From a virus: 64,000 nucleotides of DNA. Of this stretch, positions 51,336-64,000 are shown one piece after another. The notes below the pieces were generated by a model. It ran no database searches and had not been told where the DNA came from. It saw only the letters and a list, made by a program, of their open reading frames with translations. The position numbers and the translations under genes were made by a program. The stretch spans positions 41,815 to 105,814 of IMG/VR virus record IMGVR_UViG_3300021964_000024; one strand, given 5' to 3'. Position 1 is the stretch's first letter; every line of letters starts with the position of its first letter.

Positions 51336-52096
51336 ACTTTCTGGAATGCTTCGTATAGTGTGTCTGCAAATACTAGCTGTGACTTTTCACCCGCATGAGA
51401 AGAAGGTTTCATATCATCGTTCTCCTCAGCGATAGTGGCGAGATCTGTATAACGATTTAATCCAACTCTGGATTCGTCTCTCAGATAATTTAATTCGTCT
51501 TGGATGTGCTCCATCCACTCACCCCACCATTTGTCGGGGGCATCACCACTGTAGTTCTCTGGTTTCATAACGTCCACAAGTTCTTCCCAACATCTATAGT
51601 GGAACATACCTTGTACCAGTTTGATACCCATCATATCACACAACCATTGCATATTGGTCATATATGTCATGGTCTCCATTATGTTGGTTCGTTTGACATC
51701 ATAATGATCGTACAGATATTCTAGTGCTTGAGCGAACTGCATGTTACGAATCATGTTGATTCTAGCAGGAGAGAACTGAGTCATACACTGATTCCGTTTG
51801 ATCTTCATCAATGCTTCTTCACTGGGGCCATAACTCTCTGCAACCTCTTCTCTTTCCCATGCAGACCAAATCACTACACAGTGTGTGATCTCATCGGAAT
51901 AGTTACGTAAGTACTGCATGGTATCTCGAAAAATTTTACGATTACCATTACCGCACTGAGCAATGTTTACATACTCAAGACCCAGTTTCTTTGCAAGGTG
52001 ATGAGTGAATGTTTTGTCCCAGTGAGTAGGTGGACTTTGATCAAACCCCTCTAACTCATCTCCCCAGACAAATGAACAACCACTAGTTAAGAGCAT
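51332..52096 (-). CDS. SGNH hydrolase-like protein
   Basis: GCSFVWG, N.A.CG.GN, H near C-terminus. Confidence 0.7.
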   Translation of the reverse strand: MLLTSGCSFVWGDELEGFDQSPPTHWDKTFTHHLAKKLGLEYVNIAQCGNGNRKIFRDTMQYLRNYSDEITHCVVIWSAWEREEVAESYGPSEEALMKIKRNQCMTQFSPARINMIRNMQFAQALEYLYDHYDVKRTNIMETMTYMTNMQWLCDMMGIKLVQGMFHYRCWEELVDVMKPENYSGDAPDKWWGEWMEHIQDELNYLRDESRVGLNRYTDLATIAEENDDMKPSSHAGEKSQLVFADTLYEAFQKV

Positions 52097-52512
52097 TACT
52101 TTCCATGCAACCTGTCATGTTCGAACAATGCAAGAAATCCGTAGTGGATAATTTTTACAATGTCTTTACGTTGATCTTCGGGTGTACCCTTCTTACCATA
52201 ACGTGCATTGTATTTGTCCACGTTACCTAGAAAGAAACCCATACCATGACCACGGTCAATGATTACTTCAGAAGACTGAAGTCCACCTTGACCATAATGA
52301 CCACCGTAAGTAGAATCGATATAATCCTTGAACTCAGCAATCAGTTCATCTTCTCTGAATTTGTATTCAGGGGTGTCTGTGAGGGTTAGGGTAACAGTAT
52401 CCAAGGGGATCGTGTCTACGGTGATAGTGCCAGTATTACTGACGCTGCCCGTGTATTGACCACCATCTACTGTATCAAATGGTGGCAAGTGTGCTTTAAT
52501 TTCTTTACTCAT
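52096..52512 (-). CDS. DUF3310-like protein
   Basis: HY, GFFLGNVDKY..RYGKK, KIIHY. Confidence 0.75.
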   Translation of the reverse strand: MSKEIKAHLPPFDTVDGGQYTGSVSNTGTITVDTIPLDTVTLTLTDTPEYKFREDELIAEFKDYIDSTYGGHYGQGGLQSSEVIIDRGHGMGFFLGNVDKYNARYGKKGTPEDQRKDIVKIIHYGFLALFEHDRLHGK

Positions 52513-53179
52513 TTTCAATTTCCTCAATCAATAAATCACGTAGTAGTCTTGCTTGTTGGTCTTCCGGAGAGTTCTCTCCATAACCACAAAACTTGTACGC
52601 AAGTGTTATTCTCTCATCTCCTGCATATGCAGAATGCCAACAATGATTGTGGGGTTCATCCTCTGGCCCGAAATAGTAGTGTCTACACTGCCATCCCTCT
52701 ACATCTTGGATAGTCACAATCTCACCTGTATTTTTATCTAGGTAACGGAAATACCCGTCTCCCTTAGACCAAGTAAACAGTACTTGATATGCACTTGCAT
52801 CATAGTTAGTATGCCATCCTACAAATCCGCCAGGCGGATAGTAGGACAATAGTGCAGACGTGTGTGCACCGATCTCTGCGGCAAAGTCATACTTCACCTT
52901 CTTCATATAGTCACCCCACTTCTCAGGTTCCGCACGTACCATCTTTGCAATGGGATTTGCGTAATGCCGATCAGGTACTCCGACTAATTGATCACGGGAC
53001 ATACACTCTTTAAGATACTCATCGGAACACCAGTATTCACCACGTCCGTTCTTCGTATCTTCTTCATGACTGTACATGCTGTACTTAGAGTCATTATAAC
53101 CCTCGACAGCAAACAGTTCATCCTTAAACCCGTTAAGAGTCTCTAGGAGATCCTTATTACGGATTACGACTTCTGTCAT
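52505..53179 (-). CDS. 2OG-Fe(II) oxygenase-like protein
   Basis: GWHTN, CWHSA, RITLA. Confidence 0.65.
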   Translation of the reverse strand: MTEVVIRNKDLLETLNGFKDELFAVEGYNDSKYSMYSHEEDTKNGRGEYWCSDEYLKECMSRDQLVGVPDRHYANPIAKMVRAEPEKWGDYMKKVKYDFAAEIGAHTSALLSYYPPGGFVGWHTNYDASAYQVLFTWSKGDGYFRYLDKNTGEIVTIQDVEGWQCRHYYFGPEDEPHNHCWHSAYAGDERITLAYKFCGYGENSPEDQQARLLRDLLIEEIENE

Positions 53180-53445
53180 AGAATCAGACCGGAAGTCGCC
53201 TCACGCCACGCTTTCTCAAACGTTTCGTTAGTAGGTGCAATGAAAAGATAGTTACAGAAAGTAACCTCTTCAATGTTCTCTACTGCTGACATGCAAACAC
53301 CACGTCCAAATCCAACCTTGTTGTCTGGACTGTTCACAATCAATTTAGGGTCTGTCACATACAACTCGCCCTTGTTTAGGTTTTCAAATCTACCAACGTA
53401 TTCACCAATAGGTGTCATGATAGTAATAACGTCACCCTTCTCCAT
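53176..53445 (-). CDS. hypothetical protein (Sm/SH3-like)
   Basis: GEYVGR, TSGLIL C-terminus. Confidence 0.6.
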   Translation of the reverse strand: MEKGDVITIMTPIGEYVGRFENLNKGELYVTDPKLIVNSPDNKVGFGRGVCMSAVENIEEVTFCNYLFIAPTNETFEKAWREATSGLIL

Positions 53446-53620
53446 TTTCTTTCTCCTCAACAAATTTTTTAAGTACCCACGTTCCCATAGGTTGTGGTTC
53501 CCATGATAACACATCACCTACTGATAAGTCAAGTGCATCCATTAAATTATCTGGAAATTCCAGACAAAGTTCTCCGTCCACTTCTATAACTGGACAAATA
53601 AATCGATTAACTGATTTCAT
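53432..53620 (-). CDS. AbrB/MazE-like protein
   Basis: LEFPDNLMDALDLSVGDVLSW. Confidence 0.7.
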   Translation of the reverse strand: MKSVNRFICPVIEVDGELCLEFPDNLMDALDLSVGDVLSWEPQPMGTWVLKKFVEEKENGEG

Positions 53621-54311
53621 TTACTGCCTCCGCAACATCTGGGAAGTGCATCACGATATGTTCCCAACATTGATCTGCGACGATACGGTGTTCTTTCTGT
53701 GTACCATTACCTCGACGCAATTGACAATAGTGAATCCATGAACGCAACGATCCTGCCATATACAGTGTGGTTTGAGTATTACCTTCGGGTAACACTGCAC
53801 GTGCCTGTTCCTTTGCAATACCTTGATTTAGTGCCCAGTTATATGCCTTTTTAGACGCATTGATAACTTCGGACTGTTTCATGTTCCAGTCTTCATAGAG
53901 TCTCTCGTGTTGGGTCTTGTTACCACCCTTACCAAAGTCTTCGACATCTTCTAACTCAATAGAGTTCTGTCGATTCTTAGGATCCTGCAGACGTGCTTCA
54001 CGAAGCAGAAAATCTTCTGACTCTGCGTATCGTTGACTAAACTCTTGAAATGAGAACGAGCGATGTCGGACAATCTGACGTGAGATATCACGGGTTGTCT
54101 TAATCTCTAGTGTCATATGCACCATCTCAAACGGAGACCAGTGATCATTCTTGATCAGATACCGTAAGAGTTTTGGTGCAGTCGAACTATTACTCTGATT
54201 GCTCGGATTACTCACCCGTGCAACATATGCAATCAACTCGTTTGCATCCACACCATCAGTCACACCAACGTTCGGTTTACTAATCGCAACCAAATTCACT
54301 TCACTCATCAT
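53607..54311 (-). CDS. thyX: flavin-dependent thymidylate synthase
   Basis: HWSPFE, RHRSFSFQEFSQRY. Confidence 0.95.
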   Translation of the reverse strand: MMSEVNLVAISKPNVGVTDGVDANELIAYVARVSNPSNQSNSSTAPKLLRYLIKNDHWSPFEMVHMTLEIKTTRDISRQIVRHRSFSFQEFSQRYAESEDFLLREARLQDPKNRQNSIELEDVEDFGKGGNKTQHERLYEDWNMKQSEVINASKKAYNWALNQGIAKEQARAVLPEGNTQTTLYMAGSLRSWIHYCQLRRGNGTQKEHRIVADQCWEHIVMHFPDVAEAVNEIS

Positions 54312-54322
54312 TCTTCCTTACA

Positions 54323-54550
54323 TTAAATTAACAAATTTATATAGTGGGATCTTACCACTGTACTTTCCAAGTGTCCGTTTCTATTGTAGGTGTAAACTGT
54401 CTCTTGTTGTTGAGACGTTGCAGCTAGAATTTTAACGGTTGACTTCACCAATGGTCTCTCCACTGGTTCTGTCTGTTGAGTTGTTGGATATGTTCCTGAA
54501 ACGGGTAGAGCAGTTACCGACGATACGGGCGGTATACTATGTTCGCTCAC
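54323..54550 (-). CDS. hypothetical protein
   Basis: 75-aa ORF. Confidence 0.55.
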   Translation of the reverse strand: MSEHSIPPVSSVTALPVSGTYPTTQQTEPVERPLVKSTVKILAATSQQQETVYTYNRNGHLESTVVRSHYINLLI

Positions 54551-54725
54551 CTAAATTTTCCATCTCTTTGTGACCTTCTTCGGTCATCCAACCTTTCCTT
54601 ATCATGAACTCCAGACAGTATTCAATACCATCTAGTGTTCCTGATTCCTTTCCTTGTCGGTGACCGTGCCAAAATGACAAGGTGACCAACGTCATAATTA
54701 TTGCTACTGTTTCGTATGGTGTCAT
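54537..54725 (-). CDS. small membrane protein
   Basis: N-terminal TM. Confidence 0.55.
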   Translation of the reverse strand: MTPYETVAIIMTLVTLSFWHGHRQGKESGTLDGIEYCLEFMIRKGWMTEEGHKEMENLGERT

Positions 54726-56119
54726 ACCCTAAAGTCCTCGAATCTTTCTGACCTGAGTCGCTGACCACTTGAACTATTATCGAATGCGGGGCCAGTATCC
54801 TCTTCCTGATTCAACGGTGATGTGTTTTGATCAACGTCGAACAACCTCATTTTACTACGGTCAATACCCACAACGAATCTCTGATACGTGGTAGGATCGT
54901 TATACCTGTTCTTCAACTGCTTGACAAGTATTTGACCGTTATTCGATAACTCTTCATTTGAAATCAAGGCAAACATAAAGTCTGCGGTAGCGGGTAGACC
55001 GAATGATTCAGATGTATCCTCAAGACCCACGTCATCATTTGAATAACCAGATCGAGTCGTTTGTGTTGCGGATACAATAGGAACATCGAATTCCACTGCG
55101 AGTCCACGTAACTCTTCTGCTATCGACTTAATATATGTATAAGAATTAATCGCACCACCCATAGATTTCATACGGGATGATGCACATATATTTAGGTAAT
55201 CGATATAGATGATATCGGGTACAAAATTCTTCTTTAGTTTTAGTTCGTTCAACAACGCACGGAAGTGTGATGAATTCGCCTGTCCTGTCGGGTATTCCTT
55301 AACAACCAGTTTACCCTGCGTCTTCTTCGCAATCGCATGTACCTTGTCGGTGAACATATCCTTAGATAGGTTCTCTAGTTGATCTATCGGGACGTTAAGT
55401 AGATTTGCATCGATCCGTTCCGCAATACGTTCTTCAGCCATCTCCATAGTGATGTACAGGACATTCTTCCCTTGTGACAAGGCACTGCCAGCACAATGAC
55501 ACATGAAAAGACTCTTACCAACACCCGTACCTGCAAGTGCGATGTTGAGAGTTTTGTTAGGTAGTCCACCTTTAGTGATACGGTTGAAGTAGTCCAAGTC
55601 AAAAGGCAGTTTCTCCTCTTGAGTATGGTAGAAGTCAAAACGCTCTTCTACGTTCTCTAAGTAGTCGTGTCCGATATTTGTATCGAAGGTCACACCCAGT
55701 GCCTTACTCAATACATCCGGTATTGCATTCTTAGATAGCGTCTGGTGCTTCCCATCAATAATACTTATAGATTCCATTACCGCATTGAATACCGCACGGT
55801 CTTGACACCACTTCTCAGTACGATCAATCAACCATTCAAGGTTCTCTGGTTCTGGTGTAAAGATATTGGGGAGCAGTTCGATAGCATGTCGGTACTGCTC
55901 ATCGTTGAGTCGATTATTCTCATCGATCTCAATTTTGAATGCTTCCATAGTAGGAAGTTTATTGTACTTCGCAATAAATTGTGTGAACTCTTTGAAGAGT
56001 CCTTTGTAGACACCCTCGAAGTAGTCAGGTGTCAGAAACGCTGCTACCTTCCTCGCATACTGGTCATTCGTCAATAGATTCCGTAGAATCGTTTGTTCCA
56101 ATTGTATTTCCATCATCAT
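54722..56119 (-). CDS. 41: replicative DNA helicase (T4 gp41)
   Basis: AGTGVGKS, IDYLNIC, ESFGLPATAD, KNRY. Confidence 0.95.
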   Translation of the reverse strand: MMMEIQLEQTILRNLLTNDQYARKVAAFLTPDYFEGVYKGLFKEFTQFIAKYNKLPTMEAFKIEIDENNRLNDEQYRHAIELLPNIFTPEPENLEWLIDRTEKWCQDRAVFNAVMESISIIDGKHQTLSKNAIPDVLSKALGVTFDTNIGHDYLENVEERFDFYHTQEEKLPFDLDYFNRITKGGLPNKTLNIALAGTGVGKSLFMCHCAGSALSQGKNVLYITMEMAEERIAERIDANLLNVPIDQLENLSKDMFTDKVHAIAKKTQGKLVVKEYPTGQANSSHFRALLNELKLKKNFVPDIIYIDYLNICASSRMKSMGGAINSYTYIKSIAEELRGLAVEFDVPIVSATQTTRSGYSNDDVGLEDTSESFGLPATADFMFALISNEELSNNGQILVKQLKNRYNDPTTYQRFVVGIDRSKMRLFDVDQNTSPLNQEEDTGPAFDNSSSGQRLRSERFEDFRV

Positions 56120-56444
56120 CCTTATTTAACCGTTCTTTAGTATAGATCCAACCATCATGACATCCACGTTCGATAATATCCTCTAAGATATCTGCGGCAC
56201 ATTCCTGAAGTTCTACGTTACTAGGTTCAAGGAATGGAACAGGTGACTGTACAACCCGAAAGTTGAAAGTGAGGCAGTCACGAGTTCCATCAAACTTGAT
56301 TGTCCCATACCGTATAACGGTTTCCACAAAATCGCCACGTAAGATACGTACATCCCATGCGGCATCATTATCAACATAATCAACAGGGATCATTTCATAA
56401 TCGACCCCTTCAGAAGCTTTATTTACATTAATCGTTTTCGACAT
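56064..56444 (-). CDS. gp40-like protein
   Basis: position between uvsX and 41. Confidence 0.5.
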   Translation of the reverse strand: MSKTINVNKASEGVDYEMIPVDYVDNDAAWDVRILRGDFVETVIRYGTIKFDGTRDCLTFNFRVVQSPVPFLEPSNVELQECAADILEDIIERGCHDGWIYTKERLNKDDDGNTIGTNDSTESIDE

Positions 56445-57489
56445 CTGAATCTACTATTGTATCAGGATCTACTTGAGTTGGCAAGCCAATTTTGAATTGT
56501 TTTTCTACAAACTCTTTGAAGTCAGTGAATTCTAGGATAGGAGTCCAGAATTCTTCATCCAATGTTTGAGCGAGTCGAACCTTTGGATCAACCAACTCAC
56601 CAGTAGAAGTATCAACCCTACAGTACCAACCGTTACTAGGCTTAGCAACATAACCGCCAGCGAGAGCAACATCCAGAAGACCGCTGAAACGTTGGACACC
56701 ACCATCCCAAGAAACTGAGATAGGGATCTTAGACTTTTCTTTAACATACCTACTTTTCTCCACGTTGATTACAAAGTGATACCCTTTGATTTCTGTACCA
56801 ACTTTGTCCTGTTGTCTCCCTAGAATCCAGATGTTGTCTGCAGAGTAGTAGATACCAGTACCACCACCTACAATGTCTTTGGGGAAAAGACCGATTTCTT
56901 TGTAGGTGTGGTTAACTGCGAGTAAAGGGATACTCTTCATTGCAAGGTATGGTGTAGTCATACGGAACAGACCCTTCAGTGCTTTCGCACGAGACATATC
57001 CGCAACTGACTTTTCACTCATTGCATCCTCAAGTTCTTTCTTGGACGCAAGGTTACCGATAGAGTCGATCACGATAATCACGTCATCATCCCTATCCAGA
57101 TTCTCTAACTGAGCAATCAGGTCAAATTTTAATTCTTCTACATTTGTGATAGGAGTATGCAGAACCCTAGTAGTGTCAATTCCAAACTGCTCGAAATAAG
57201 ACTGGGGGGAACCGAACTCACTATCATAGAATAGTAATACCGCATCTTTCTTTGCCTCCAGATACGCACCCGCCATCAATAGGGCGAACGATGTTTTAAA
57301 GTGTTTAGATGGCCCTGCTAGGACTGTAAGTCCCGGCGTAACACCACCATCAAAGGATCCCGATAACGCAACGTTCACCATAGGAACATTGGTGGGAACC
57401 ATATCTTTTTCAGTGAAGAACTTACTCTCCGACAGTACTTCCGTTGCCTTGAGTTTTGAGTTCTTCTTCAGTTTGTCCATTATTGACAT
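56428..57489 (-). CDS. uvsX: RecA-like recombinase
   Basis: AGPSKHFKT, YDSEFG, DSIGNL. Confidence 0.95.
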   Translation of the reverse strand: MSIMDKLKKNSKLKATEVLSESKFFTEKDMVPTNVPMVNVALSGSFDGGVTPGLTVLAGPSKHFKTSFALLMAGAYLEAKKDAVLLFYDSEFGSPQSYFEQFGIDTTRVLHTPITNVEELKFDLIAQLENLDRDDDVIIVIDSIGNLASKKELEDAMSEKSVADMSRAKALKGLFRMTTPYLAMKSIPLLAVNHTYKEIGLFPKDIVGGGTGIYYSADNIWILGRQQDKVGTEIKGYHFVINVEKSRYVKEKSKIPISVSWDGGVQRFSGLLDVALAGGYVAKPSNGWYCRVDTSTGELVDPKVRLAQTLDEEFWTPILEFTDFKEFVEKQFKIGLPTQVDPDTIVDSDVEND

Positions 57490-58423
57490 CATCATCTCCA
57501 AATGTAATGTTGTTTACTTTTTCACGTTCATCTAGATCATATTGTACACGATAAGCACTATTAATGTCAAGCACTTTTTGCAACAAATCGAAATTATTTT
57601 CCTTACCACGAGTTTCGGAAAACTTTAAAAACGCCATTGTGTCCTTTGGTAGACACGCACCACCGAACCCACGTTTCTTATCGGGGCCGGGCACTCGTGT
57701 ATGTTTTACTCCAATACGATCATCTGCACCCATTGCACGAGTAATCATATTGTAACTGCAGTCAAATGAATCCACCACATCCTTCAGTTGATTGAAGAAG
57801 GTCAGTTTGGTTGCAAGATATGCATTGGTTGCATACTTGACAAATGACGCTTCACAACCAGACATGCGGTAATACTTATCTGATTTACAGTTAGAAAAAA
57901 TATCATAGATCTGTGAAATTTCATCACATGCTTTCTGTGTACCACCAAACACATGATGTTCCGCATTTACAAAATCCTCACATGCGGATTTCTCTGTCAG
58001 GAACTCAGGGTTATAACAGAACCGATCATAGTCTTGTGGTTCGATAGAGTTGTACAGTCGGTCTACAATGTCTGGTGTGATTGTTGATTTCACAACAACA
58101 AATGCGTTAGTGTGGTAGATCAACTTCAGTACTGCATCTTCTACAATAGACGCATCTACGAATCCGCTGTCAGGGTTCTGAGGTGTCGGTGCACATACAA
58201 ATACAATCTGAGGTTTCCAATCGATGAGATCGTCTACACTTGTATTGTAAATAGGATCTACCAAGAAGTGTTCAATCATAGGATGATAGAATGCATACTC
58301 TACTGCTTTACCTACGAAACCATGACCCACGATACCCATTTTCAACGGGTTGTTGGGGTTGATAGGTTCTGGTGTTCCTTCGGTAGGTTTCTCAGGAACG
58401 AACTCATCAAAATTATCTGCCAT
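57422..58423 (-). CDS. UDP-glucose/GDP-mannose dehydrogenase-like
   Basis: GHGFVG, KSTI.P, NPEFL, GFGGACLPKD. Confidence 0.9.
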   Translation of the reverse strand: MADNFDEFVPEKPTEGTPEPINPNNPLKMGIVGHGFVGKAVEYAFYHPMIEHFLVDPIYNTSVDDLIDWKPQIVFVCAPTPQNPDSGFVDASIVEDAVLKLIYHTNAFVVVKSTITPDIVDRLYNSIEPQDYDRFCYNPEFLTEKSACEDFVNAEHHVFGGTQKACDEISQIYDIFSNCKSDKYYRMSGCEASFVKYATNAYLATKLTFFNQLKDVVDSFDCSYNMITRAMGADDRIGVKHTRVPGPDKKRGFGGACLPKDTMAFLKFSETRGKENNFDLLQKVLDINSAYRVQYDLDEREKVNNITFGDDDVNNGQTEEELKTQGNGSTVGE

Positions 58424-59354
58424 TATGATACTCCACATACCAATCGTAAAAATTCTTAATACCCACACTCACGTCAGTGTGAGGGTGATAACCCAGTGCT
58501 TCTAGTTTAGAAGTGTTTGAATATGTTTCTAGTGTGTCTGCAGGATGTTTAGGTTGCATGTCATATATTGCAGACTTACCAACATTCTTCTCAATCTCTT
58601 TAATGAAGTCCATCAACTGAACTGGACTACCTCTACCGATATTGTAGATCTCTCCAGAAGGTGCGTCCTCAAACAATACACACAGAATACCATCTATGAT
58701 GTCATCAACGTAGGTAAAGTCACGTTTCATGTCTCCGTAGTTGAACACAGTAATCGGTTCATCTGCAATAATGTTCTTGGTGAAACTAAACAGTGCCATG
58801 TCAGGTCTTCCCCAAGGGCCATATACAGTAAAGAAACGTAGACCCACATTATTCAAACCGGATGCTTGGAACTGACATTCATTAGTCCACTTAGACCAAC
58901 CGTATGGGTTCAACTGCTTACCTGTTTCTTTACCCTCAGTCCACGGTAACTCAGATCCCGCAAAGACACAAGAGGTTGATGCATACACGATGCGTACATT
59001 AGGTAAATGCTTCTTACATAGATCAATCAGGTTTTGAGTTCCGTCGATATTGTTCTCATGGTATTGTTTCTCTTTACCAAACGAGTCACGTACACCCGCA
59101 TGTGCGGCAAGGTGAATGATATCTGTGGGTTGATGTTTAACCAGAAACTCTTCTAGGTGATACGAGTTACGAATATCAACATATCTGACATCGATGTCAA
59201 AGTGATTTACCCTATCCTTTTTTAGTGTGGGTGAATACAGGTGATCATTAAAGTTGTCTAACCCAATCACCTTCTCTCCTGCATTGTACAGTGTGTTCAT
59301 CAACTGAGATCCGATAAATCCCGCTGCTCCTGTAATTAAAAACTTTCTATCCAT
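58413..59354 (-). CDS. NAD-dependent epimerase (UDP-glucuronate 4-epimerase-like)
   Basis: GAAGFIG, Y..SK, RFFTVYGPWGRPDMA. Confidence 0.92.
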   Translation of the reverse strand: MDRKFLITGAAGFIGSQLMNTLYNAGEKVIGLDNFNDHLYSPTLKKDRVNHFDIDVRYVDIRNSYHLEEFLVKHQPTDIIHLAAHAGVRDSFGKEKQYHENNIDGTQNLIDLCKKHLPNVRIVYASTSCVFAGSELPWTEGKETGKQLNPYGWSKWTNECQFQASGLNNVGLRFFTVYGPWGRPDMALFSFTKNIIADEPITVFNYGDMKRDFTYVDDIIDGILCVLFEDAPSGEIYNIGRGSPVQLMDFIKEIEKNVGKSAIYDMQPKHPADTLETYSNTSKLEALGYHPHTDVSVGIKNFYDWYVEYHNGR

Positions 59355-60288
59355 TTCTGTATATGTACTCCAGTGCTCTGTCTGCCTCTACGATCAGTGG
59401 ACGATTCTCATACCAGTTACCTGTCTCACGATCAAACTCCTTACACATATCTGCAATTTGATTTGCGGTGATAGGGTAACCCTTCTCGAATGCACGTCCG
59501 GCAATCGCAATCATTATTTGATACATCTTGTGATACCAACCTGTACCAGTAATCGACTGATACTCTGCACCCAGTTTACGTGGCCAGAACGGACAGTCTC
59601 TATAGGATATCCAATTGATGTCAGTGTTATTTAGTTGATTCTTACGATACTCAATTATCTCTTTCTGCATCTCTGGTGGTAGTCGATCTAGGAATGAGTT
59701 GCCTGTCTTCTCTACATACGGATACTTAGCAATTAACTCAGAGACGTTTAGTGCGTCACCTGAGTTAGTAAAAAAGAAACTGAATGCGTCAGGATATATT
59801 GCAGGTACATAATACATACGTGCAAGATCCTTAGTTTGCGGATCTCCTATCTCACCCAGTTCTGTGTTCAGTGCATACCAGAATGGTTTGATGCGTTCGT
59901 TCTCAATGTGTTCGTCCAGTCTAAAGACGATGCGGAACTTTGGTATGTCCTCACGGGAACTCGCAGTGTTGTATACCACATAGTCCAAGTGACCAAACTT
60001 CTCCCGCAACGATTCTTCTAGAGATAGAACATCATGAGGAAAAACATGATCGTCCACATCAACAGCACACCAACCAGCCCAACATACAGTAGATTTATTA
60101 CTACGTGTGCTATCGGTTTGAAAAATAGCAGGAGTAATAAGAGGACTAGAATTATTTCCACCCTTCTCTCCTTTTTGTTGTGACAACCCACGCAACAACG
60201 CAACGAGTTCATCCCAGTCTGAGAGTGACACTCGCCGGTGCGTTTTGTTGTCAAATTGATTTTTGAATATCGTTAATTCGTATCGCAT
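59347..60288 (-). CDS. primase-polymerase (AEP-like) protein
   Basis: VDVDD, TASS, KFRIV, D...KD..RMYYVP. Confidence 0.7.
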   Translation of the reverse strand: MRYELTIFKNQFDNKTHRRVSLSDWDELVALLRGLSQQKGEKGGNNSSPLITPAIFQTDSTRSNKSTVCWAGWCAVDVDDHVFPHDVLSLEESLREKFGHLDYVVYNTASSREDIPKFRIVFRLDEHIENERIKPFWYALNTELGEIGDPQTKDLARMYYVPAIYPDAFSFFFTNSGDALNVSELIAKYPYVEKTGNSFLDRLPPEMQKEIIEYRKNQLNNTDINWISYRDCPFWPRKLGAEYQSITGTGWYHKMYQIMIAIAGRAFEKGYPITANQIADMCKEFDRETGNWYENRPLIVEADRALEYIYRNG

Positions 60289-60295
60289 GTATTCA

Positions 60296-61093
60296 TTATA
60301 ACAGATCACATAGTACTTTGTCAAGCTGATCAGGATTTGATATCAGGGCACGTGCAAACAACTGGACTAGAGTGTTATTGATTCTGTACTTGATCCACCC
60401 ATCTGTCGCACTCTTAAAGTACTGGTTAGCGTTCTTGGTGTGAGTCCAGAGTCCACGTTGCAATGCGTTCGCAGTTCTACCTCCGTATCTGACCTCCATG
60501 ATATAGTCACCGTACCTATCATAGAACCTATAGACCGGATGCTTTCTTCCAGACCCAGACTCAAGTAGTCGTATGTATCTGGTATTCAACTCTGCCTTTC
60601 TTGCATTGAAAACAAGAATGTTGCACTCTAGTTTATTCTCCTTGTAGATCAAGGGTAGGACATTCATCTTACCGAAGTGACTGAACGCTTCGTGATCAAA
60701 GACATCCTTAATTTCTTCTGGATCAGTAATCTCTGATCCGTAGGATTCTAGTAATGGAAACATGAGACATTCTTTGTCAGTAGACAATTGCAGTGGCCCG
60801 TCTCCGTATGCCTTCAGACTGATAGGGAACTCATCGTAGTTATCAGTATTCGTTACTATCACGTCCTCTTCGTGTCCCTTAGAACGGAACAACTCTTTAC
60901 CCACATGGATACAGTTGTATCCTTTCATGTGTTCGTTGATGAACTCAGTGATCGCAACTTCTGCAAGGTCACCATGGGTCTTGTTACCAATGACCCGCAT
61001 GGTAAAGATATTACTCAGGGTATCGGTTAGTTCTTTTTTCTTATATTTGGATAAGGATAACAGGTCTTCATTAAATTTAGTAAATGCACTCAT
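60296..61093 (-). CDS. type II restriction endonuclease-like protein
   Basis: GDLAE...EEDVIV...ISLK (PD-(D/E)xK variant). Confidence 0.55.
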   Translation of the reverse strand: MSAFTKFNEDLLSLSKYKKKELTDTLSNIFTMRVIGNKTHGDLAEVAITEFINEHMKGYNCIHVGKELFRSKGHEEDVIVTNTDNYDEFPISLKAYGDGPLQLSTDKECLMFPLLESYGSEITDPEEIKDVFDHEAFSHFGKMNVLPLIYKENKLECNILVFNARKAELNTRYIRLLESGSGRKHPVYRFYDRYGDYIMEVRYGGRTANALQRGLWTHTKNANQYFKSATDGWIKYRINNTLVQLFARALISNPDQLDKVLCDLL

Positions 61094-61634
61094 ATAGTCT
61101 CATCTCCCCAACTCCACCGCCTTTGAAGTCTGTGCGGTATGGGTAGTTTTTTATAAATCTCAAACGTTCTTCATCTTCAAAAATTCTGACCACCATATCA
61201 ACTTGTGGTAACTCCGTATTGTCATACAAGACATACTTCGCACCTAGTCGAAACGCAACGATAGTATCATCGATCACATTTTGTTTATCATGATTACCAT
61301 CGACAAACACTAGGTCAAACTCTTCACCTTTCACCCTATCTAAAATTTTAGGTGACGGTACAAGATGCACTGTCACGTTAGGGTACTTCTCCATCACTAC
61401 CTCACCATACTCACGTCCTCGTGGATGGTCAGGACAACAGGATATAATTTTGCAGTCCGGATGGAAATGCTCTGCCATGTAACTGGTAGAGTGTCCTGCA
61501 TAAAATCCAATCTCTAATACACTCATGGGGTTTACCACTTCACGTATATGCTTCAGTGCATCGAAGATGTGTTTGTTTGCGGGTAGATAACCCCACCCAT
61601 CTTCTTTCCACATCAAGTGTTCAAAATTATCCAA
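61077..61634 (-). CDS. class I SAM methyltransferase (Methyltransf_24-like)
   Basis: LEIGFYAGHS, FVDGNH; TTG start. Confidence 0.8.
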   Translation of the reverse strand: MDNFEHLMWKEDGWGYLPANKHIFDALKHIREVVNPMSVLEIGFYAGHSTSYMAEHFHPDCKIISCCPDHPRGREYGEVVMEKYPNVTVHLVPSPKILDRVKGEEFDLVFVDGNHDKQNVIDDTIVAFRLGAKYVLYDNTELPQVDMVVRIFEDEERLRFIKNYPYRTDFKGGGVGEMRLYECIY

Positions 61635-62022
61635 AGAAATCCTCCAAGGACGGTTGTTTTTGACCAGTTACGAATTCAAGAAATCCACTTTCCGAAACGT
61701 CTTTAATAAAAAGTGACTCCCAATTAGTAGAACCATCTTTGTTCAATCGATACCAGTGTTTAATATCTCGATCTTCTCGATATTTTTTCATAGAGTGATT
61801 GTCGGTGTTCCACGCATTTTTCACAGACCAGTAGACACCATCTACAATGTAGTCAACACCTTCCGGTCTGTTTTTATCCCTACCAACAAAGATAACATTA
61901 TCTGGCAATTTAGAATTTATATAATCTTCCAACAAACGTCCAACGTTCTGTTGCAGTAAACGAATTCTTTTGTACACTTCGATATCCGATTTAGTAAAAA
62001 ATTTTTCTATAATACTATCCAA
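61627..62022 (-). CDS. SinI-like restriction endonuclease with C-terminal clamp-binding motif
   Basis: [25 protein letters not shown]; ends SLEDFFG; TTG start after GGAGG inferred. Confidence 0.6.
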
Positions 62023-62034
62023 AGAAATCCTCCA
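61628..62034. repeat. 19-bp direct repeat flanking the nuclease gene
   Basis: TATCCAAAGAAATCCTCCA at 61628-61646 and 62016-62034. Confidence 0.9.
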
Positions 62035-64000
62035 GTGTCGCCTTGGGTTCTGCAACCCAACCCACCGCATCCAGAATGGGTGTAATAGGATCAATGAATG
62101 TCTTATCGAACATCATATCATAATTTATGTGATCATGCAACCCCAGTTCTTTCGGAAGGTTCAGGGGAAACGATACCACGTTCTCACCCAGACGGTTGGG
62201 CATTTTCAGATAGACGAACTTGATCTTCTCTCCGTTCTTGACCATCTCGTACCTACGTTCTAGGGCATTCTCCTTGATCGCACTGTTGTACATTAACGCA
62301 CCACGCACGTGAATGGGGGTGCCTTTCTTGTACACAGCGGTACGGTCTTCCCATTTGTCAACGTCCGATACTCCACGAGGAAACGAGATGTCTTCGGGTG
62401 GAAGGTTCTTGAATTGGGACTTAAAGTCTGAAATGAACCGTTGTGTTTCTAATTCTGTACCTTGGACTAGTATATGAAACAGTTCTTTCATTTTATCCCG
62501 CACCACCGAAGGTGTGGACGATTTGATTGCTTCAATACCCATCATCTTGAGTTTGGGTTCTGCGTACTGGACACCCTCATTGTTGTGGACGTTGAGGATG
62601 TATCGTTTCTTTGCCATCCAGATACCACGATCTGCAATAACCTCACGACCCATCTCCATGCGATTTTCATACGCACCCGTCACAGTCGCCATGCTCTGAT
62701 ATGATTTCTCTAGAACTTTCTCGAAGTGTTCACTGCAGATCTTGTCTAGAAACCCAACAGGATTCTTGGGAGAAAAATGATCAACGAGATCCCCCATACG
62801 AATATAAAGAGAATCGGTGTCAATTGCAACAACGTAGTCCTCATCTGTCTTGAGAAGATTTTGCATCTCATTATTCACTGCCCTCTCTGCCCATTTGATT
62901 GCGAGTTGTCCCGCAAGAGTAATCGACTCCGCAACACGTTGATCGAAGTAACGAAACCATCGGTTACCCAACGCACCATAGAGTGAGTTCATCAAGATCT
63001 TGATCGCCATCTGATTGTTGTTGAGTGACGTGATCTTGTATTCTAATTCCTTGGAAGGATTCTTCTGGTACTCTGTCTGTAGCTTCAGCATCTGATCCTT
63101 GATCACTCGACGTTCAGAGTAGTACTCCTTAATCACGGAAGGTACGACACCCTCACGTTCATGAGTAAACTTAGAACCAGTCGGTGCAACAGAGTAACCT
63201 ACATCTCCGACATTGACAGACCCGTCAAGGAACTTCTCTACTGACACATCATGTATGAATCCATCCATGACAGTCTCAGGCGACATATTGTACTGGACAA
63301 TGATATTCGGGTACAGGGAGTTCAGGTCGAATGAGGTAACCCAATCGTGTGATCCAACCTGCGGATCCTTGACATACCCGCCGGGGTATGCAGTCTTGGG
63401 TTTCTCGACCTTGGGTGGTACAACGATCTTCCTCTTGTTTAGAATACGATAGATGATCGAATCCCAGATTGCAGTCGTACCCAGAGTATCACCATAGTTC
63501 ACACCACCACGATATGCCATGGTCAGAACCAGAGAGATCAGGTCAAGCTTCTCATCGATCTTGTGTACCAACTCCACGTCCTTGACGTTGTAGTCAATGA
63601 ACTTCTGGTAGTCTTCCTTGTGCAAGGTGTATAGGTTACCGTGTTCCTCATACGAGAGTTTACGTTCACCCAGTACCACGTTCGCAATGTTGTCCAGTCG
63701 ATAGGACTCTTGTTGACCCAGAGTATTCAGGGTGAACTTCTTGAAGACCTCAAGGTAGTCGAGGTGCTCGACACCCTCAATCACAAAGTACTGATTGGGT
63801 TTACCGTTGATAGTGATGTTACGATCCTGCACCAGACCCCAAGGACTGAGGCGGCTGGACATCTTGGTATCACCAGTGATCTTGTACATACGGTTGATCA
63901 GATATGGAATATCGAAGAACCGTGTGTTCCACCCAGTAATAATATCAGGAGTATGCATCTCCCAGAACCGGACGAACTTCTGCAACAGATCGAACTCGTT
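62015..64000 (-). CDS. 43: family B DNA polymerase (T4 gp43), 5'-partial
   Basis: [24 protein letters not shown]; C-terminal TLEDFFG; frame open to the window end. Confidence 0.97.

Follow-up and report, generated by a model that had tools for sequence, protein, structure and literature searches.

The polymerase gene is followed by a short ORF and a repeated 19-bp sequence

A 64,000-nt stretch of DNA from a marine T4-like phage (positions 41,815 to 105,814 of IMG/VR record IMGVR_UViG_3300021964_000024, a contig of 105.8 kb designated here G000; the whole stretch is referred to as the window) contains a small open reading frame (ORF), termed ORF-X, directly downstream of a DNA polymerase gene of the T4 gp43 type. 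The genes around the junction between the polymerase and ORF-X all lie on the minus strand, and the features of this region, in window coordinates, are as follows.

62015..64000, minus strand: T4 gp43-type family B DNA polymerase gene, 3' two-thirds (Pfam DNA_pol_B, E 1e-34, and exonuclease domain); the contig end cuts the gene
62016..62034, minus strand: repeat copy 1, holding the last polymerase codons (L-E-D-F-F-G), a Shine-Dalgarno sequence GGAGG (62033-62029) and the TTG (62022-62020) that is the start of ORF-X
61627..62022, minus strand: ORF-X, 131 amino acids, predicted half-size AvaII/SinI-type PD-(D/E)xK nuclease with a C-terminal tail (Pfam, profile, AlphaFold2 [AF2], Foldseek and VIA-align)
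61628..61646, minus strand: repeat copy 2, holding the last ORF-X codons (L-E-D-F-F-G), GGAGG (61645-61641) and the TTG (61634-61632) that is the start of the next gene
61628..62015, minus strand: cassette, a 388-bp presence/absence segment defined by comparison with contig L027, its exact borders being ambiguous within the 19-bp repeat
61077..61634, minus strand: class I S-adenosylmethionine (SAM) methyltransferase gene, 185 amino acids, O-methyltransferase-like (Pfam Methyltransf_24, E 7e-11; Methyltransf_3, E 5e-8)

The repeat is the 19-mer TGGAGGATTTCTTTGGATA, which occurs in the window as two exact copies on the minus strand, spaced 388 bp apart, and lengthens to 24 nt at 22/24 identity. 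No further copy was found in the 64 kb at up to 3 mismatches (0.01 expected by chance), and no copy elsewhere in the 105.8-kb contig. The polymerase ends in ..ATLEDFFG with a TAG stop (62017-62015) and ORF-X in ..PSLEDFFG with a TAA stop (61629-61627). In copy 1 a 6-nt spacer separates GGAGG from TTG, and the ORF-X product opens M-D-S-I-I-E..; the gene after ORF-X opens M-D-N-F-E-H.. from the TTG in copy 2. The original prediction had proposed that polymerase and ORF-X share an identical 19-bp end, and that the same bases provide peptide tail, ribosome-binding site and TTG start of the following gene; the identity is exact and the triple use was found in both copies. The TTG start of ORF-X is supported by its homologues, since these begin at the equivalent position with an ATG or TTG that shares bases with the stop codon of the polymerase. 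Many relatives instead have FFG-TGA-CA at the junction, which yields a TTGACA -35 box with TATAAT 17 bp further on. Phage C48C1 (L001 5640-5700) is one such case, the last polymerase codon and stop, GGT TGA CA, forming the -35 box; at junctions of this type, the tail-coding end overlaps an early-type promoter instead of a ribosome-binding site and start.

ORF-X is predicted to be a half-size AvaII/SinI-type nuclease

The ORF-X product matches the Pfam family RE_SinI (PF09570) with 29.5 bits (cutoff 22; E 5e-7), covering only profile positions 102-213 of 218, and a profile of 44 family members matches the AvaII structure 6g3b with an E-value of 2e-9. The AF2 model of ORF-X has a predicted local distance difference test score (pLDDT) of 91. 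When this model was used as a Foldseek query, the top 8 matches were all AvaII (E 2e-5) and every match with E <0.01 was an AvaII chain. VIA-align placed the model on AvaII residues 81-231 (Z 11.2, 128 residues aligned; next fold Z 5.4), and the best structural match was the DNA-bound AvaII conformation. The earlier assignment of this gene to the SinI/AvaII-type PD-(D/E)xK nucleases is thus upheld by both sequence match and predicted fold, which agree.

AvaII and SinI are type IIP enzymes cutting G^GWCC (PDB 6s48, 6s58, 6g3b). In AvaII, residues E123, D147 and K163 are catalytic and Q161 is a metal ligand; a loop comprising N167, T168, N170 and S171 reads both G:C pairs, N116 reads the minor groove, and E115, H108 and M112 anchor the metal that reads the central W (PMC7337904). 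The corresponding positions of ORF-X, numbered after family alignment A1, which has one extra N-terminal residue, are listed below, with the AvaII roles taken from the same source.

AvaII E123 (catalytic): ORF-X E33
AvaII D147 (catalytic): ORF-X D58
AvaII K163 (catalytic): ORF-X K69
AvaII N167, T168, N170, S171 (G:C-reading loop): ORF-X N73, T74, N76, S/H77
AvaII N116 (minor-groove reader): ORF-X Q26 (Q or N in the family)
AvaII Q161 (metal ligand): ORF-X invariant Ser67
AvaII E115 (W-reading metal anchor): ORF-X invariant Gln25
AvaII H108, M112 (W-reading metal anchors): not kept in ORF-X

Across the 44 sequences, little or no variation is seen at E33, D58, K69 or in the N-T-x-N-S loop. ORF-X therefore shares with AvaII and SinI the PD-(D/E)xK core and its catalytic residues (a Glu located on the core helix, the Asp of the 'PD' motif and the Lys), and also the N-T-x-N-S loop and the conserved W/R/NW motifs downstream. 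It differs from them in length (131 against 230-238 amino acids) through lack of the N-terminal three-helix bundle, in the Ser that replaces Q161, in the W-reading anchors, which are not conserved, and in having no partner methylase. It differs also in its clamp-type C-terminal tail, which is absent from SinI/AvaII-like proteins of 200-270 amino acids; in an exhaustive representative search, these longer proteins matched only profile positions ~14-125 and never the last eight, which correspond to the tail. A pseudogene or truncated relic was rejected as an explanation of the small size, because all 47 close homologues are equally short (130-150 amino acids) and the catalytic residues are invariant. 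The short family turned up only in viral and metagenomic contigs: at the search sensitivity used, ORF-X had no match in 50,697 phage records (tblastn), in PHROGs or in the genomes of 185,579 species.

The C-terminal tail resembles sliding clamp-binding peptides and is conserved away from the polymerase

In phage T4, the gp43 C-terminus EKASLDFLFG is the peptide that binds the gp45 sliding clamp, and a ligase loop, EGLDFLFD, binds gp45 with a dissociation constant of ~10 uM (PMC6212786), while gp55 has a divergent linker followed by a conserved gp45 epitope (PMC2988020). All 79 polymerases available from related loci end in [ST/N]L[ED][DE/S]FF[GVSA], and the C-termini of ORF-X (..SLEDFFG), its own polymerase (..TLEDFFG) and T4 gp43 (..SLDFLFG) can be aligned. 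As in the T4 gp45 ligands (gp43, gp55, gp33 and the ligase loop), the candidate docking element of ORF-X, [ST]-L-[DE]-x-F-F, is short, hydrophobic and acidic and lies at the very end of the protein, behind a variable linker; it has the same core as the tail of its own polymerase and is predicted to form a short helix. A gp45-type clamp gene (PF09116) was matched in the relatives G001 (at 65.1 kb; locus L115) and G002. By analogy with the T4 gp43, gp55, gp33 and ligase peptides, the tail probably docks ORF-X on a gp45-type sliding clamp. The gp55 late sigma factors of relatives end in ..DSDLSDYLE (G001 68949-69536, minus strand) and ..NGLEEFMEDHD (L019 1769-2308), both of which resemble this epitope, with its hydrophobic and acidic residues, more loosely.

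In the alignment of the ORF-X family, residues L127 and F130 are at least 90% conserved and the preceding six residues, which form the linker, are variable. The tail is not confined to genes next to the polymerase. ORF-X follows gp47 in L019-L021 (order UvsW, gp55, gp47, ORF-X; tail ..ASLEAFL) and a methyltransferase gene in L022-L023 (tail ..STLDNFF), and the distant short homologues P0050, P0055, P0057, P0061 and P0069, of ~25-50% identity, keep it as ..SSLDEFFV, ..STLDAFFTD, ..SPLDKFFKL, ..ATLEGVFK and ..TPLELCF. Homologues lacking the LEDFF tail would have counted against the original prediction; a tail of this type was found across the family, including genes away from the polymerase. At the nucleotide level, Leu is encoded by five different codons in ORF-X tails and Phe by either of its two. 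In L006, L008 and L013, the tails of polymerase and ORF-X differ by 3-5 synonymous changes with 0 replacements within LEDFFG, and in the same three loci the second copy retains LEDFF without GGAGG and without an overlapping start. Constraint from the ribosome-binding site or promoter alone was rejected as the origin of the tail, since LEDFF persists in loci whose second copy has lost GGAGG and the start overlap, and a TTGACA box would bear on no codon other than the last one and the stop. Judged from these alignments, the tail appears to be an old, selected peptide and not a simple insertion scar.

The explanation that we consider best is that ORF-X is a phage-specific 'mini-AvaII', predicted to consist of a catalytic and DNA-reading core (~AvaII 81-231), a variable linker and an [ST]-L-[ED]-x-F-F peptide; for this explanation as a whole we estimate a probability of roughly 0.6.

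GGWCC sites are absent from all genomes carrying ORF-X

GGWCC was claimed to be absent from this DNA, and this proved correct: there are 0 sites in the window, for which shuffled sequences give an expectation of 80 over both strands, and 0 in the whole 105.8-kb contig (80 expected by a Markov model, 115 by composition), which has 37 GGSCC sites. The 23 other contigs carrying ORF-X, which span a GC content of 31-45% and ORF-X identities of 46-83%, likewise contain no GGWCC (~121 expected in total). Of 76 related polymerase loci without ORF-X, 40 have GGWCC sites and 36 have none, and in a polymerase tree ORF-X appears at no fewer than 8 separate positions, always in GGWCC-free genomes. A relative that has an empty site in place of ORF-X, L027 (see below), also has 0 GGWCC. 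Because GGWCC-free relatives without ORF-X exist, the nuclease did not impose the avoidance, and ORF-X as its cause was rejected, G001, L027 and the 36 loci being equally site-free. It is more likely that ORF-X can be tolerated only in GGWCC-free genomes, which host restriction has probably shaped. The confinement of ORF-X to site-free genomes still points to GGWCC as its target, and from sequence comparison it seems reasonably likely that ORF-X cuts GGWCC.

A cognate methylase was also looked for. The 185-residue neighbour was rejected in this role, being O-methyltransferase-like, with PDB matches only to O-methyltransferases, and no C5, N4/N6 or D12 methylase was found in the 105.8-kb contig; the earlier statement that no DNA methylase accompanies ORF-X is therefore supported. 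ORF-X would be harmless to its own site-free genome, and its targets would be GGWCC-containing co-replicating phages or unmethylated host DNA. That it acts against such competitor or host DNA is proposed tentatively.

Phage nucleases that discriminate against foreign DNA are familiar from T4, whose EndoII and EndoIV spare self DNA, which carries hydroxymethylcytosine. Solitary restriction enzymes resemble ORF-X in being restriction-type nucleases without a linked methylase (Ershova et al. 2012, PMC3488263). EndoII, EndoIV and the solitary enzymes escape self-cleavage through base modification or a distant methylase, whereas the ORF-X genome is proposed to do so through complete absence of the site. 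A literature search, which covered few subscription journals, found no phage restriction enzyme protected by site absence.

GGWCC is not the only sequence missing from contig G000. The palindromes CGCG (94-197 expected) and AATATT (24-64 expected) also occur 0 times, as do GGTACC, GACGTC, CGTACG, CGATCG, GTCGAC, ACCGGT and GCATGC, and CCWGG (28/116) and GCGC (18/75) are depleted. In relatives, CGCG is either absent or near expectation.

ORF-X is a 388-bp cassette present or absent between near-identical phages

An empty site was predicted to exist in related phages, and one is present in the IMG/VR contig L027, whose identity to the window is 99.0% in the polymerase gene and 98.4% in the 10 kb downstream. 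L027 has a single copy of the 19-mer, and its polymerase gene is followed directly by the methyltransferase-like gene, with no ORF-X in between. Window positions 64000..62016 align with L027 1218-3202 and positions 61646..51636 with L027 3184-13200, and no difference is found in the 290 bp adjoining the missing segment on the left, towards the polymerase, or in the 67 bp adjoining it on the right. ORF-X is a clean 388-bp cassette, gained by the window or lost from L027. An assembly artefact was rejected, given that the same gene order recurs in many independent contigs; in our judgement, a 19-bp repeat is as a rule too short to mislead an assembler. The two polymerase genes have 20 differences, which are clustered, with 12 within 100 bp (63278-63377) and 6 within 33 bp (62306-62338), a pattern typical of short recombination patches between related phages.

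The part of the original prediction that calls for modification is insertion with a target duplication, which is not the best reading. A transposon with target-site duplication was rejected, because the cassette has room for ORF-X only, without a transposase, and no terminal inverted repeats were found in its 388 bp; moreover, the tail is old and selected, and kept away from the polymerase too. Sequence comparison instead indicates that the histories of ORF-X and polymerase disagree: ORF-X of L004 is 83% identical to that of the window and its polymerase only 49%, whereas in L024-L026 the values are 46% and 64-67%, respectively. Exact repeats of 19-21 bp are present in the window, L004, L025 and L026, and in each of them the end of ORF-X follows the local polymerase in its final residue (G or V) and its stop arrangement, which is FFG-TAA combined with a TTG start or FFV-TGA combined with an ATG. 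Since the tail copies the local polymerase end in this way, crossovers would fall inside the tail-coding sequence, and recombination between the tail-coding ends of ORF-X and polymerase accounts for the exact repeat better than target duplication does. We give about even odds to the proposal that the cassette recombines via this tail-coding joint. Clamp-tailed genes end in near-identical nucleotides, so a crossover there would insert or delete a cassette in frame without damage to the tail of the polymerase or to the signals for translating the gene that follows. In this phage group, the slot behind the polymerase is a general cassette site.

Other DNA-modifying and DNA-cutting enzymes of relatives carry similar tails

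Tails were counted in 80 related loci, in which the slot was defined as the region bounded by the polymerase and a conserved primase-like gene. The content of this slot is highly variable, and the tail was distributed as follows.

Polymerases: 79/79
Slot ORFs after the polymerase: 26/61
ORFs upstream of the polymerase: 3/724
ORFs downstream of the slot: 0/747

The tailed slot proteins, besides ORF-X, belong to several enzyme groups.

Dam: ..STLDAFFG, ..QTLEEFFV
N4/N6 methylase: ..CILDSFFE, beside a BglII-like nuclease ending ..NNIENFFE
Mom family: ..NSLEEFFG
PDDEXK_5; Endonuclease VII/HNH
GIY-YIG-like: motif recognized by eye only, with no Pfam or PHROG match

The three tailed ORFs upstream of the polymerase are two Dam genes and one TET-associated glycosyltransferase gene, and in L027, the near-twin of the window, one tailed Dam (D12 class) lies directly before the polymerase. 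Among 120 Mom-like homologues, 55 have strict and 24 loose tails, with dozens of sequences fitting [ST]-L-[ED]-x-F-[FLM]; to judge from these sequences, this diversity looks like that of a functional short linear motif. A structural protein of G001, the baseplate hub, ends in ..GLDDFF, which shows the background rate of chance matches.

On this basis we consider it possible, with slightly less than an even chance, that the clamp peptide of the polymerase is a portable module in marine T4-like phages, which recruits DNA-modifying and DNA-cutting enzymes to the clamp and whose coding sequence acts as an in-frame recombination joint. The candidate clients would be Dam, N4/N6 methylase, Mom, TET-associated glycosyltransferase, mini-AvaII, BglII-like, PD-(D/E)xK and HNH proteins, and possibly the GIY-YIG-like protein, which is not family-confirmed. 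Modification and restriction would in that case take place at the replication fork. The bearers of the tail would thus differ from the T4 ligands of gp45, being a restriction-type nuclease here and Dam, N4/N6 methylase, Mom, glycosyltransferase, BglII-like, PD-(D/E)xK and HNH proteins in relatives; to our knowledge, no such nuclease or modification enzyme is a clamp client in T4. No literature on clamp-type tails of phage restriction or modification enzymes was found in a search that covered few subscription journals.

Several further tailed genes were observed. L031 3930-6922 (also L030 and L033-L035) has four slot genes in a row, encoding Dam, the BglII-like nuclease, a SAM-lyase-like ORF and the N4/N6 methylase. 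Genes 1, 2 and 4 end in ..STLDAFFG, ..NNIENFFE and ..CILDSFFE, and the SAM-lyase-like ORF, a weak match (E 0.003, below the Pfam cut-off), contains ..ESFF, placed seven residues before its C-terminus. The BglII-like nuclease may pair with the methylase as a restriction-modification system whose partners both carry tails. A TET-associated glycosyltransferase (L086 8024-8875; Pfam TAGT, E 5e-35) ends in ..NNLDEFFA and an Asn-synthase/QueC-like PP-loop enzyme (L022 594-1418) in ..NTLEEFLI, and both are further candidates for tailed DNA-hypermodification enzymes. In L038 (11545-11790), an alternative-frame ORF of 81-84 amino acids inside the primase-like gene ends in the clamp-tail-like ..SSLESYFD. 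It recurs at the same place in L007, L011, L012, L040-42, L048, L054-56, L065, L090-92 and L094, and in L087, where the primase-like gene is split, the first 122 residues run into the alternative frame and end with the same ..SSLESYFD tail; this could be chance or a frameshifted short isoform.

Alternative explanations

Several observations weigh against parts of the mini-AvaII explanation, and those that concern cleavage are shared with a rival in which ORF-X is not a double-strand cutter of GGWCC at all, but a truncated relic of a restriction enzyme, reused as a nickase, a site-specific DNA binder or a nuclease of other specificity, with the absence of GGWCC being a host-driven coincidence. 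The first ~80 residues of AvaII, which form the three-helix bundle, are absent, leaving ORF-X at half the size of AvaII/SinI, and the position of the metal ligand Q161, canonically D/E, is taken by Ser67, so that activity could be lower, be limited to nicking, or rely on another acidic residue such as the invariant E112. With the bundle missing and the W-reading anchor residues missing or changed, neither dimerisation nor a preference for a central W is assured. GGWCC-free relatives without ORF-X are common, and one of them, G001 (151 kb, 91% complete), has 0 sites against 174 expected; G002 likewise lacks ORF-X. The association between ORF-X and GGWCC absence hence holds in one direction only, and common descent or a host restriction-modification system could be part of its cause; the loss of CGCG, AATATT and several 6-mers indicates independent strong avoidance of multiple sites. 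Host DNA, moreover, would be protected if hosts methylate GGWCC. This rival is nevertheless rather improbable in our assessment, because it does not account for the catalytic residues and N-T-x-N-S loop being (nearly) invariant over 44 sequences, for the absence of GGWCC from 24 of 24 ORF-X contigs when 40 of 76 loci without ORF-X have sites, or for DNA-bound AvaII being the best structural match.

With regard to the tail, the window contig ends inside the polymerase gene, before the expected place of the clamp gene, which lies outside the fragment, and this too counts against the proposed docking, as do tails that may be no more than copied DNA. The HNH proteins of L036 (..KESEDFFG, encoded in a 17-bp exact repeat) and L028 (..NPVEDFFG) miss the Leu, tail-less homologues of the L036 HNH family exist, and some cargo tails are probably plain DNA copies, that is, by-products. 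All tails would be of this kind if any insertion had to duplicate the polymerase end, ribosome-binding site and start (or -35 box), with ORF-X reading into the second copy and acquiring a functionless tail. Such a scar would fit the exact 19-21-bp repeats in four loci, the concentration of tails in the slot right after the polymerase, the Leu-less ..EDFFG appended to HNH proteins that have tail-less relatives, and the promoter elements derived from FFG-TGA-CA in many relatives. It is, however, unlikely in view of tails being kept where ORF-X is not beside the polymerase and at homologue identities of ~25-50%, of 3-5 synonymous changes with almost no replacements even without GGAGG and an overlapping start, of the freedom to vary at position x but not at L, D/E, F and F, and of the tails on a Dam upstream of the polymerase and on a glycosyltransferase. 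A third possibility is free-standing homing of the T4 Seg/Mob kind, with the ORF-X endonuclease cutting ORF-X-less relatives near the polymerase 3' end and being copied in at repair. Like free-standing homing genes of T4-type phages, the cassette is a small optional gene between conserved replication genes that differs between close relatives and moves between lineages. Its presence or absence at an intergenic site of near-identical phages, the discordance of cassette and polymerase phylogenies, and the occurrence in the same slot of HNH/Endonuclease VII genes and of the GIY-YIG-like ORF (by-eye motif) are all in keeping with homing, and a restriction enzyme gene is able to act as a homing element, as Eddy and Gold reportedly found in 1992 (a paper listed in PMC2993671). 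Homing to the polymerase junction with GGWCC specificity was rejected, there being no conserved GGWCC at the junction of site-bearing relatives, where the nearest site is a variable 43 to >7000 bp away. The empty-site relative L027 is without any GGWCC, the flanks identical over 290 and 67 bp show no co-conversion tract beside the cassette, and ORF-X belongs to a type II restriction lineage and not to a known homing family; homing in any form is accordingly a very improbable account. The cassette also recalls the promoter-early stem-loop (PeSL) cassettes of T4-type phages, reportedly described by Arbiol et al. in 2010, in having short repeated regulatory sequences at its borders. It differs from PeSL and homing elements in that its border repeat is the coding sequence of a protein motif instead of a stem-loop, in its restriction lineage, and in the lack of a target site at the insertion point, if the target is GGWCC.

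Neighbouring genes

The methyltransferase-like gene that follows ORF-X in the window does so as well in L024 and L026, and follows the polymerase directly in L027, L039, L070 and L076; its translation is coupled to that of ORF-X in the window and to that of the polymerase in L027. Behind it lies an ORF of 265 amino acids (window 60296-61093, minus strand), present in the window and L027 only, which has a weak match to RE_AccI (E 0.065) and no clamp-type tail. No PDB or PHROG match was found for it, nor any Pfam match beyond RE_AccI; this ORF possibly encodes another solitary nuclease. Between the primase-like gene and UvsX (window 57422-59354, minus strand) are genes for a nucleotide-sugar epimerase and for a UDP-glucose dehydrogenase, an arrangement conserved in C48C1 and most relatives; the two enzymes may be linked to the O-methyltransferase-like gene.

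Implications

The 131-residue AvaII-type core of ORF-X would be the smallest member of its family and may serve as an enzyme tool, the AvaII prototype also cutting RNA/DNA hybrids. If its proposed specificity is correct, a genome without sites would be the answer to how a phage carries a restriction enzyme without a methylase, and ORF-X would be a weapon against co-infecting phages or host DNA. The junction would also illustrate modular evolution, with a 19-bp stretch acting as docking motif, ribosome-binding site and start codon, and as a recombination joint. If the tails dock as proposed, T4-type clamps would gain restriction-type nucleases and DNA-modification enzymes as clients, in addition to proteins of replication and late transcription. 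Modification and restriction in these phages would then be coupled to the replication fork, for which DNMT1 on PCNA offers a parallel.

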